Assembly (NCBI GenBank): GCA_965261245.1
Contig: OZ253446.1
Span: 2,069,587 to 2,133,586 of the forward strand
DNA: 64,000 bases
Direction of reading: 5' to 3'
DNA from: Spirochaetia bacterium
GTDB lineage: Bacteria > Spirochaetota > Spirochaetia > G963692905
This document shows, one piece after another, positions 17,500 through 19,254 of this stretch (position 1 is its first letter; every line of letters starts with the position of its first letter). The notes under the pieces were generated by a model. The model had not been told where the DNA came from. It saw only the letters and a program-made list of their open reading frames with translations, and did not search any database. Made by a program: the position numbers and the translations under genes.

Positions 17500-19254
17500 A
17501 TGGATAATGCGGCGCACGATTACCTGCATGCACGGGCACAGAAAATAATTTCCCAGAAATTATTGGAGCTGTTTGCCAAAGAGGGGTACAAGGAAATAGC
17601 GGTGCCGATGGTGGATAAGTACAACCACTATCGCGAGCTCTTGCAGGCGCGGCAGGCGGAGCGTAATAACCGGATACAAGGCGGGGGTGACGAGCCGTTA
17701 TTGATGCGCCCTGATGTTACCCTGTTTCTGACCCGCAGTATTGCTAATAGCCTGCGTGCTATCGGTGCCATTGGAAAAAAAGCACGGCTGTGCTATGCGG
17801 AAAATGTAGTCCGCGATTTATTGAACACCGACGGCGTTGGGCGTGAACAATTTCACACAGGTGTGGAATTATTTGGCAACGGCAATAACGACAAAGAACA
17901 AGAAGATGAAATAGAAGAGATTATTTTTCTTGCAATTCACGCACTGGAGACACTAGGGTTGAAAGACTGTCGGATACATATTGGCACGAGATCGCTTTTT
18001 AATGATTTAATCGGCAGCTACCATGATCCTGCTGGTTTTGGTACAAGACTAATGACCAAATATGCCCAAAAAATATACGGCAGCCTCTCTAGTATTATTA
18101 TAGCTAACAATCATATTCAATTGTGGAAATCGTTGCGACATTTTATGGGGTTTACAGTCGAAAAATGTGACGCGTTACTTGCGTTATTCTCCTACCGCAG
18201 CAGTAGCGAATCGGATACTCACGAATTAATAAAAATGTTTAACTATGATCTAAACGAGAAAAACATAGTTGTAGAACAGCTGGGCAGGCTACATAGCCTA
18301 TGCGACAAGCTAAACGACAGAATAACCGAAGGTAAACATCAACCAAAAGTAGTTGTCGATCCATCGGAAGTTGGGCAGCACGATTACTACACCGACATCG
18401 CCTTTTCTACTTACTCGCCAGTTGCCAGCAGCAGGATTACTGGCGGCGGGCGGTACGATAGATTGGCAGATAATTTTACAGAACTCTTCATGACACCAGG
18501 ATGCGGCTTCAGTTTTTTTCAGGAAAGGTTTGTCGACTATTTTATTCCAGATGCAGAAGCCGAATTGAGCGAAAAGAACGAGCCCGTAAAACCATCTCAA
18601 ACTTCTGGAAAACCACTAACATCAGCAGCAGATCTCATTACCATTGCCATACCGAAAGGAAGGATATTTGAAAAAATAAAAGGTGTGTTAAAGGATAACG
18701 GTGTAGTTCTCGATTTTGCAGGCCGCAGTCTGATTTCCGAGGACAAAGAACTGGGGGTGCGCTGGCAACTGGTGAAAAACGTCGATGTTCCCGCCTACGT
18801 CAATAACGGGACGGCGCATTTAGGAATTGTCGGCAGCGATATACTTGATGAATACCCTGATTTTATCGCCACCTTGCATGCATTTGAATTTGGCAGCGCG
18901 CGAATGGCGTTAATTACCACTCAGAAAAATCAGGAAAATCAAGATGCAGAATTATACAACGGCGTAACCATAGCGACAAAATATCCGGTAGCAACGCAGG
19001 AATATTTAGATTTCAAAGGAATAGATGGGCGCATCATTAAACTCAACGGCTCGCTAGAGCTGGCGCCGCTGTTGAAGCTTGCGCCGTTTATCGTCGATAT
19101 TGTTGAAACCGGCACCACCATGAAGAATCATAATTTAGTAGAAGTAGATGATCTCGATACTACCAAAGTGCTCCTGGCAGCCAACCCCGCCTACTACAAA
19201 CTCCACGCCCAACGGATAAAAGACAAGATATTACCAATATTAGCCGAAAATTAA
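17500..19254 (+). CDS. hisZG: Fused HisZ-like regulatory domain + ATP phosphoribosyltransferase catalytic domain (HisG short form)
   Basis: N-terminal class-II aaRS-like HisZ region with GGGRYD motif; C-terminal HisG-like region (IAIPKGR...LGIVGSDIL...DIVETGTTMK); lower GC than flanks. Confidence 0.7.
   Translation: MDNAAHDYLHARAQKIISQKLLELFAKEGYKEIAVPMVDKYNHYRELLQARQAERNNRIQGGGDEPLLMRPDVTLFLTRSIANSLRAIGAIGKKARLCYAENVVRDLLNTDGVGREQFHTGVELFGNGNNDKEQEDEIEEIIFLAIHALETLGLKDCRIHIGTRSLFNDLIGSYHDPAGFGTRLMTKYAQKIYGSLSSIIIANNHIQLWKSLRHFMGFTVEKCDALLALFSYRSSSESDTHELIKMFNYDLNEKNIVVEQLGRLHSLCDKLNDRITEGKHQPKVVVDPSEVGQHDYYTDIAFSTYSPVASSRITGGGRYDRLADNFTELFMTPGCGFSFFQERFVDYFIPDAEAELSEKNEPVKPSQTSGKPLTSAADLITIAIPKGRIFEKIKGVLKDNGVVLDFAGRSLISEDKELGVRWQLVKNVDVPAYVNNGTAHLGIVGSDILDEYPDFIATLHAFEFGSARMALITTQKNQENQDAELYNGVTIATKYPVATQEYLDFKGIDGRIIKLNGSLELAPLLKLAPFIVDIVETGTTMKNHNLVEVDDLDTTKVLLAANPAYYKLHAQRIKDKILPILAEN

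Follow-up and report, generated by a model that had tools for sequence, protein, structure and literature searches.

A hisZ-hisG fusion gene of a spirochaete with an apparent in-place origin and divergent, AT-rich alleles

Introduction

How does a histidine gene come to carry in one reading frame two proteins that its closest relatives encode separately, and why is it so much richer in A and T than the genes on either side of it? We addressed both questions for hisZG, a gene at positions 17500–19254 (+ strand) of a 64,000-nt stretch of contig OZ253446.1 (GenBank assembly GCA_965261245.1, Spirochaetia bacterium), hereafter the window. hisZG encodes a 584-aa fused ATP phosphoribosyltransferase (ATP-PRT), in which a regulatory HisZ domain precedes a catalytic short-form HisG domain. 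The host is a deep-branching spirochaete. We consider it very probable that, as a whole, the locus holds a fused ATP-PRT that originated in place, independently of other such fusions, and that exists as divergent, AT-rich alleles.

Results

hisZG is a single open reading frame (ORF) with an ATG start and no internal stop codon. Pfam recognizes both halves of the product, tRNA-synt_His (PF13393) at residues 11–339 (E = 7.5e-34; 117.8 bits against a cut-off of 25) and HisG (PF01634) at residues 427–575 (E = 3.7e-38; 131.4 bits against a cut-off of 25.5), and no further family. The frame therefore encodes what the earlier note, made from the letters of this stretch, had proposed, a HisZ-HisG fusion in one polypeptide, and the proposed split into ~360 and ~200 residues was about right. 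Alignment places a HisZ-like domain at residues ~1–345 (17500..18534, +), a linker at residues ~346–378 (18535..18633, +), and the short-form HisG catalytic domain at residues ~379–584 (18634..19254, +). Two things delimit the linker: low model confidence, and an alignment of the junction to L083, L085, and L025, three related spirochaete loci in which hisZ and hisG are separate.

The N-terminal half is a HisZ-type paralogue of histidyl-tRNA synthetase (HisRS) and not a genuine HisRS. It corresponds to the class II catalytic core of HisRS; the HisRS-like part stops near residue 345, where linker and HisG follow, and Pfam finds no HGTP_anticodon domain in the 584-aa protein. The NCBIfam hisZ model TIGR00443 outscores the hisS model TIGR00442 (141.8 versus 86.3 bits, against a TIGR00442 cut-off of 286.75), and a sequence search of the Protein Data Bank (PDB) pairs this half with Lactococcus lactis HisZ (1z7m_A, E = 3e-15). 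It carries the histidine-pocket motifs MRPDVT (69–74), GVE (121–123), YYT (296–298), and GGGRYD (315–320), whose patterns (RPD.T, G.E, YYT, and GGRYD) are invariant or nearly so across fusions. Thus, the assignment of the GGGRYD-bearing half to HisZ stands, and neither a frameshift nor a stop codon splits the frame.

The C-terminal half is, as had also been proposed, a short-form HisG. It scores 151.9 bits with the NCBIfam hisG model TIGR00070, above the cut-off of 75.75. Pfam detects no HisG_C domain, and the protein ends 9 aa past the PF01634 match. Its PDB sequence matches are the short HisG chains 2vd2, 1usy, and 1o63, the best chains being 200–230 aa long. The phosphoribosyl pyrophosphate (PRPP) loop, DIVETGTT, lies at residues 533–540, and all 19 of the 19 near-invariant columns of a 94-sequence alignment are kept.

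An AlphaFold2 model built with 94 sequences has a predicted local distance difference test score (pLDDT) of 90.3 and a predicted template modelling score of 0.90. The sole poorly defined stretch is the linker (pLDDT ~60 at residues 361–380 and below 50 at residues 368–376), which is predicted to be disordered. In Foldseek comparisons, the HisZ half aligns with the 1z7m chains at target TM-scores of 0.73–0.78 and with 3rac at 0.76, and the HisG half aligns with 1usy, 1o63, 5m8h, and 8oy0 at target-normalised TM-scores of 0.81–0.88 (root-mean-square deviation 2.1–2.9 Å).

To trace the origin of the fusion, the two halves were searched separately. The closest matches of the HisG half are standalone short HisG proteins of 200–230 aa, among them P0269 (57% identity) and, from named organisms, sequences of Spirochaetia (47%) and of Spirochaeta thermophila (42%). 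In other fusions, the HisG half shares only 30–37% identity with it. In a neighbour-joining tree of HisG, built without bootstrap values, the window falls within the standalone spirochaete clade together with L081 and as sister to L083. L081 and a third allele-bearing sequence, L082, are two contigs of one ENA metagenome that carry this locus in the gene order of the window. When 1.84 billion representative proteins were scanned exhaustively with the HisZ half (HMMER), only the two close alleles ranked ahead of standalone HisZ proteins of 350–370 aa at 31–37% identity.

Gene order in related spirochaetes agrees with an origin from neighbours. L083 (ENA ERZ25069412), which carries P0269, encodes pyruvate kinase, a GAF sigma-54 activator, hisZ (369 aa), and, after a 22-nt gap, hisG (206 aa), with the upstream order as in the window. 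L085 and the Spirochaetia metagenome-assembled genome L025 have hisZ-hisG-hisB with overlaps of 4 nt and 23 nt. The HisZ half is thereby the positional orthologue of the hisZ that lies upstream of hisG in L083, L085, and L025. A protein alignment across the junction reveals that the linker is a shortened HisZ C-terminal tail leading directly into the HisG N-terminus (...AADLITIAIPKGR...). Among named organisms, the adjoining HisB is closest to Spirochaetales and Spirochaeta (~50–55% identity). Taken together, the nesting of HisG among standalone spirochaete proteins, the synteny with L083, and the collinearity of the junction indicate that the fusion formed in place from vertically inherited neighbours. 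Adjacent hisZ and hisG, inherited vertically, would have fused within this spirochaete lineage through loss of the hisZ stop codon and the short spacer, and the old HisZ tail would have become a flexible linker of ~33 aa. In the databases searched, this particular fusion is known from three sequences only: the window, P0002, and P0003.

As an architecture, the HisZ-HisG fusion is not new and is common in Coriobacteriia and Clostridia. Searched at full length, the protein matched more than 100 clusters that have both Pfam domains, including Eggerthella lenta, E. sinensis, Adlercreutzia, Dormibacteria, Oscillospiraceae, and Acidobacteriota. Since the contig scan had not told true fusions from hisZ and hisG genes that merely adjoin, 80 loci were re-scored for a shared, stop-free frame, and at least 32 species have HisZ and HisG in one such frame (32 of the 80 species-representative loci listed). 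RefSeq already holds examples, among them Collinsella aerofaciens (L087; WP_320677953, 571 aa, followed by hisD, hisC, and hisB), Monoglobus pectinilyticus (L088; WP_320690599, 556 aa, followed by hisA and hisIE), and Eggerthella lenta (WP_195998443, 603 aa). The fusions of Coriobacteriia and Clostridia sit in other clades of the HisG tree, which makes the fusion in the window an independent, convergent one; neither the tree nor the HisG identities point to an ancestral fusion shared with the Coriobacteriia, Clostridia, or Dormibacteria lineages. Hence, the architecture itself retains none of the unusualness implied by the earlier note.

The naming of these proteins in RefSeq is inconsistent: the Collinsella protein is called hisG, the Monoglobus and Eggerthella proteins hisZ or regulatory subunit, and no fusion-specific NCBIfam model was matched. 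The literature search found a single mention of hisZ-hisG fusions, made in passing (PMC9413887); a review of his gene fusions cited there does not mention hisZ (PMC1963479). One further candidate for a spirochaete fusion, L013 (CAVDWN010000044.1, labelled Sphaerochaetaceae), was set aside. It encodes an Eggerthellaceae-type protein followed by hisD and hisC; the contig has probably been assigned to the wrong bin, true transfer being less likely.

hisZG differs from its surroundings in base composition. Its GC content is 0.447 and its GC content at third codon positions (GC3) is 0.463, with GC1/GC2/GC3 of 0.53/0.35/0.46, as against GC 0.59–0.66 and GC3 0.73–0.79 in the five neighbouring genes. 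GC and GC3 are 0.605 and 0.762 in hisB, 0.610 and 0.791 in the sigma-54 activator gene, and 0.619 and 0.750 in the pyruvate kinase gene; the visible AT-richness of hisZG relative to hisB and the sigma-54 regulator gene, on which the earlier note had remarked, is thus borne out by the figures. The steps fall at the ends of the coding sequence. At the start codon, GC changes from 0.67 (intergenic, 17259–17499) to 0.46 (17500–17600), and after the stop codon from 0.36 (19191–19254) to 0.57 at the start of hisB. About 8 of the 43 long ORFs in the window have GC3 below 0.53, hisZG included. The others encode insertion sequence (IS) transposases, Cys-rich repeat proteins, a TPR/FRG protein, and small hypothetical proteins, which leaves hisZG as the sole core metabolic gene of the set. 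In relatives, hisZ and hisG match the GC of their own neighbours (for example, 47% GC in L083 and 70% in L025, the span of the lineage's relatives), so the anomaly is specific to this lineage. All three alleles, from the window, L081, and L082, are alike AT-rich (GC 0.43–0.45, GC3 0.44–0.46).

The same gene is the site of a sharp divergence between strains that are otherwise near-identical. L081, an independent assembly, also has a continuous fused frame, of 573 aa. Protein identity between the window and L081 is 97–99% for pyruvate kinase, the sigma-54 activator, HisB, and a 400-aa protein encoded downstream, 91% for YjeF, and 68% for HisZG. In sliding-window and boundary alignments, an island of divergence spans 17505..19190 (strandless), where nucleotide identity is mostly 67–85% per 100 nt, with one indel-rich bin at 39%. 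The flanks, ~4 kb on each side, are mostly 93–100% identical, with a few bins at 88–90%. Identity drops from about codon 3 until ~60 nt before the stop codon; the alleles do not differ in the ~60 nt that directly precede the start codon or in the final ~60 nt of the gene. Synonymous divergence (dS) is 0.83 in hisZG and 0.05–0.14 in its neighbours. The ratio of nonsynonymous to synonymous divergence (dN/dS) is 0.24 overall and ~0.21 in each half, as against 0.03–0.14 in most flank genes, which places both alleles under purifying selection.

L082 belongs to the allele class of the window: its hisZG differs from that of the window by a dS of 0.24 and from that of L081 by one of 0.82; outside hisZG, dS between the window and L082 is 0.08–0.19. 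Across the gene, informative sites mostly group the window with L082 and set L081 apart, and two tracts run the opposite way. At 18683..18723, 14 consecutive informative sites unite L081 and L082 to the exclusion of the window, and a second cluster of L081 = L082 sites lies at 18918–18948 (site-pattern analysis; both strandless). Clustered tracts of this sort are the kind of mosaic that recombination leaves. As a control, another low-GC gene of the window (11520–11999) is 95% identical to L082, so low GC by itself does not imply hyper-divergence. In the population, hisZG would persist as deeply divergent, AT-rich, partly mosaic alleles within nearly identical, GC-rich flanks.

What could lie behind the low GC and the divergence? 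One account, which we put forward tentatively, is that hisZG is exempt from whatever drives GC upward elsewhere in the genome. Its alleles, too divergent to recombine, would coalesce deeply, receive no GC-biased gene conversion, and sit at an AT-biased mutational equilibrium, like strain-specific accessory genes. The low-GC tract corresponds exactly to the coding sequence, all three alleles are equally AT-rich, and the other low-GC genes of the window are strain-variable accessory genes; GC1, GC2, and GC3 are all shifted, which speaks for long residence under AT pressure. Moreover, core orthologues have moved strongly in GC3 relative to L083 (0.79 here versus 0.45 there for the sigma-54 activator gene), whereas hisZG has barely moved (0.46 versus 0.50). 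Escape gives no reason, however, why a histidine gene began to diverge, and the short mosaic tracts bespeak some recombination inside hisZG.

A second account, to which we likewise give guarded credence, is repeated allele replacement: congeneric spirochaetes of lower GC, already bearers of the fusion, would have donated alleles by homologous recombination, so that composition and divergence would be those of the donors. The transitions are sharp at both ends, with ~60 nt identical on each border, as recombination arms would be; a dS of 0.8 with a dN/dS of 0.24 fits long separate evolution under constraint, and relatives of the lineage range from 47% to 70% GC. Yet no donor-like sequence appears in 5.8 billion clustered proteins or in the 1.84 billion representatives, where only the three alleles are close, and plasmid and phage collections hold no close relative, every match being below 60% identity. 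The conserved 3' end of hisZG is itself AT-rich (GC 0.36), which implies that the recipient already had an AT-rich hisZG. On the three alleles, escape and import are about equally probable. Somewhat more doubtful is a specific population-genetic version, in which one spirochaete species would keep at least two ancient, partly mosaic, and uniformly AT-rich hisZG allele classes (~30% protein divergence, dS ~0.8) as a core-metabolism island of divergence, through balancing or frequency-dependent selection or through recombination suppression, with low GC arising from escape from GC-biased gene conversion.

Local AT-biased hypermutation confined to the hisZG transcription unit, possibly by deamination associated with transcription or single-stranded DNA, would explain in one stroke the high dS, the low GC, and the match of both to the bounds of the gene. 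We hold it very unlikely. The final ~60 nt are AT-rich yet identical among alleles, the clustered mosaic tracts indicate recombination rather than point mutation, dS between the window and L082 is only modestly raised (0.24 versus 0.08–0.19), and the low-GC control gene at 11520–11999 is 95% identical between strains. A diversity-generating retroelement was considered as the source of the variation and rejected: the window contains no such element and no reverse transcriptase, and the variation extends across the whole 1.7-kb gene.

Arrival by horizontal transfer of a ready-made fused gene from a distant low-GC lineage with HisZ-HisG fusions, such as Clostridia or Coriobacteriia, is extremely unlikely. 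It would account for the atypical, sharply bordered base composition, a mark of an acquired island, and the top non-self matches of the full-length query are indeed fusions of Eggerthellaceae and Clostridia. Those matches, however, are only 24–33% identical and ranked first only since both domains add to the score; the affinity was dropped after the domain-wise searches and the HisG tree, in which the HisG half alone is closest to standalone spirochaete HisG (42–57%) and nested among them, with the N-terminal half closest to standalone HisZ. Nor does the locus otherwise resemble an island: hisB and the HisG half both have spirochaetes as closest relatives, the syntenic site in L083 is occupied by separate hisZ and hisG, and no integrase, tRNA, IS, or other mobile-element signature abuts the gene. 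Of the acquisition or distinct history that the earlier note had suggested, the HisG tree and L083 synteny thus speak against acquisition from afar, and the divergence island upholds a distinct history. The chance that hisZG is an artefact or in decay, either two genes merged by a frameshift or a pseudogene under relaxed selection, is close to negligible: the truncated 469-aa version in L082 and a dN/dS above that of most flank genes (0.24 versus 0.03–0.14) are outweighed by the ~2x coverage of L082, with frame breaks in hisB and yjeF as well, by the same continuous frame found independently in the window and L081, by a dN/dS well under 1 in both halves, by the retention of every family-invariant residue, and by the confident AlphaFold2 model.

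Downstream of hisZG by 20 nt lies hisB (imidazoleglycerol-phosphate dehydratase; 19275..19892, +; Pfam IGPD, E = 8.8e-56, and NCBIfam; GC3 0.76). hisB is probably co-transcribed with hisZG, as the overlap of the next ORF with the hisB stop codon suggests. That ORF (19889–21091) encodes the 400-aa protein mentioned above, which Pfam does not recognize, whose N-terminus resembles that of a lipoprotein (…CVIFMSSC…), and which is 99% identical, at the same position, in L081 and L082; its gene may form one operon with hisZG and hisB. Further on, a yjeF/nnr-like gene (21052–22779) contains in-frame tandem peptide repeats, AGDT in 3–4 copies and ALAGR(A/V), whose lengths vary among the window, L081, and L082 (indels at ~21800–21900 and ~22500–22600).

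Upstream, a promoter-like TTCACA-17-TACAAT (17465..17493, +; 10 of 12 consensus matches) ends 6 nt before the hisZG ATG. Such sites are no more numerous than in shuffled sequence, and this one serves as a lead only. Read directly, the sequence before the ATG has no obvious Shine-Dalgarno motif, and the arrangement is kept in L081 and L082. With TACAAT only 6 nt before the ATG and no Shine-Dalgarno motif, hisZG may be transcribed with a very short leader or with none at all. At Rfam gathering thresholds, no T-box, leader RNA, or riboswitch was found upstream of hisZG.

A GC-rich intergenic repeat of ~170 nt has one of its four copies directly upstream of hisZG (17275–17435, +), the others lying at 2279–2438 (−), 46930–47095 (−), and 61010–61156 (+), with 74–77% identity between copies. 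The four-copy consensus folds with 46 pairs, compensatory double changes being present in 16, and has no Rfam match. The repeat could be a repetitive extragenic palindromic (REP)- or miniature inverted-repeat transposable element (MITE)-like element or a small RNA.

Elsewhere in the window, an IS element with an rve_3/HTH_32 transposase (55767–56956) is 100% identical to an L081 copy (3460–4649) at a different position, which indicates recent activity; a diverged second copy lies at 12325–13323. A low-GC block of ~6 kb (~7540–13460) combines an IS element and small ORFs with genes for Cys-rich repeat proteins of the Dickkopf_N/DUF7107 type. L082 has only part of this block and L081 an IS element in its stead, which marks the block as a strain-variable accessory region. 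The Cys-rich repeat family (GLUG, TSP_3, DUF7107, Dickkopf_N) takes up a substantial share of the window (59–2230, 8343–11294, 26074–28716, 43591–46041, and 47164–52930). Several of its genes have GC2 above GC3, and their reading frames and boundaries are provisional.

Discussion

The product of hisZG is most likely a functional, histidine-regulated, single-chain ATP-PRT, an assignment made from conserved residues and by analogy with the HisZ4:HisG4 hetero-octamers of Lactococcus lactis, Thermotoga maritima, Psychrobacter arcticus, and Acinetobacter baumannii. By homology, the HisG domain would catalyse the reaction of ATP and PRPP to phosphoribosyl-ATP, and the HisRS-like HisZ domain would activate HisG allosterically and bind histidine for feedback inhibition. 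The fusion would lock the 1:1 stoichiometry of the 4:4 complex, and four fused chains could rebuild an octamer-like particle; a homotetramer that mimics the hetero-octamer would be the natural expectation for a fused chain. The retention of all family-invariant residues in both halves and the confident model argue against decay and for a working enzyme.

Several observations weigh against this picture. The HisZ half falls below the equivalog cut-offs of both TIGR00443 (271.65) and TIGR00442 (286.75), which makes it a divergent member by automated criteria, and it has lineage-specific insertions at residues ~127–131 and ~176–205. tblastn and Pfam sweeps of the 64-kb window found no his gene besides hisB, no hisS, and no second hisZ or hisG, so that hisB is the only company hisZG keeps. 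The searchable literature yielded no biochemical or enzymological study of any fused HisZ-HisG, and the allele comparison covers three sequences, two of them from contigs at 2–3x coverage.

hisZG adds one independently arisen case to an architecture that is frequent in databases but that publications hardly discuss. That such fusions have formed convergently more than once favours the idea of an obligate 1:1 complex of HisZ and HisG, and fused proteins offer natural single-chain constructs for structural and allosteric work on ATP-PRT. As an enzyme, the product of hisZG is ordinary; the oddity of the gene, a modest one, is population-genetic, its synonymous divergence being ~10-fold higher and its GC3 ~30 points lower than in genes at a distance of 20 nt. 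Should this stem from an escape from recombination or from GC-biased gene conversion, nature would have provided here a clean test of the factors that determine GC content in bacteria.

Compared with known systems, hisZG lies closest to the separate genes of related spirochaetes (L083, L085, L086, and L025). These are positional orthologues, with pyruvate kinase, sigma-54 activator, hisZ, and hisG and/or hisZ-hisG-hisB, and supply the closest sequences to both halves; there, however, hisZ and hisG are two genes, with a 22-nt gap or an overlap of 4–23 nt, and match the GC of their neighbours. The fusions of Coriobacteriia and Clostridia share the order of domains (HisZ N-terminal, short HisG C-terminal), an ORF of 520–600 aa, a short variable linker, the conserved motifs, and a place among his genes. 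They differ in sequence (24–30% identity overall, 30–37% in the HisG half), in their HisG-tree clades, and in belonging to larger his operons with hisD, hisC, and hisB or hisA and hisIE, whereas here hisB alone follows. With the two-subunit HisZ4:HisG(short)4 enzymes (1Z7M/1Z7N of L. lactis, 1USY of T. maritima, 5M8H/6R02 of P. arcticus, and 8OY0 of A. baumannii), hisZG shares both folds and families, the histidine-site motifs of HisZ, and the PRPP loop of HisG; its subunits are covalently joined, and its 4:4-like assembly is a prediction. Long-form HisG (HisGL; E. coli 1H3D, M. tuberculosis 1NH7) likewise unites catalysis and regulation on one polypeptide, but its regulatory module is the small, ACT-like, histidine-binding HisG_C at the C-terminus, whereas that of hisZG is a HisRS paralogue at the N-terminus.

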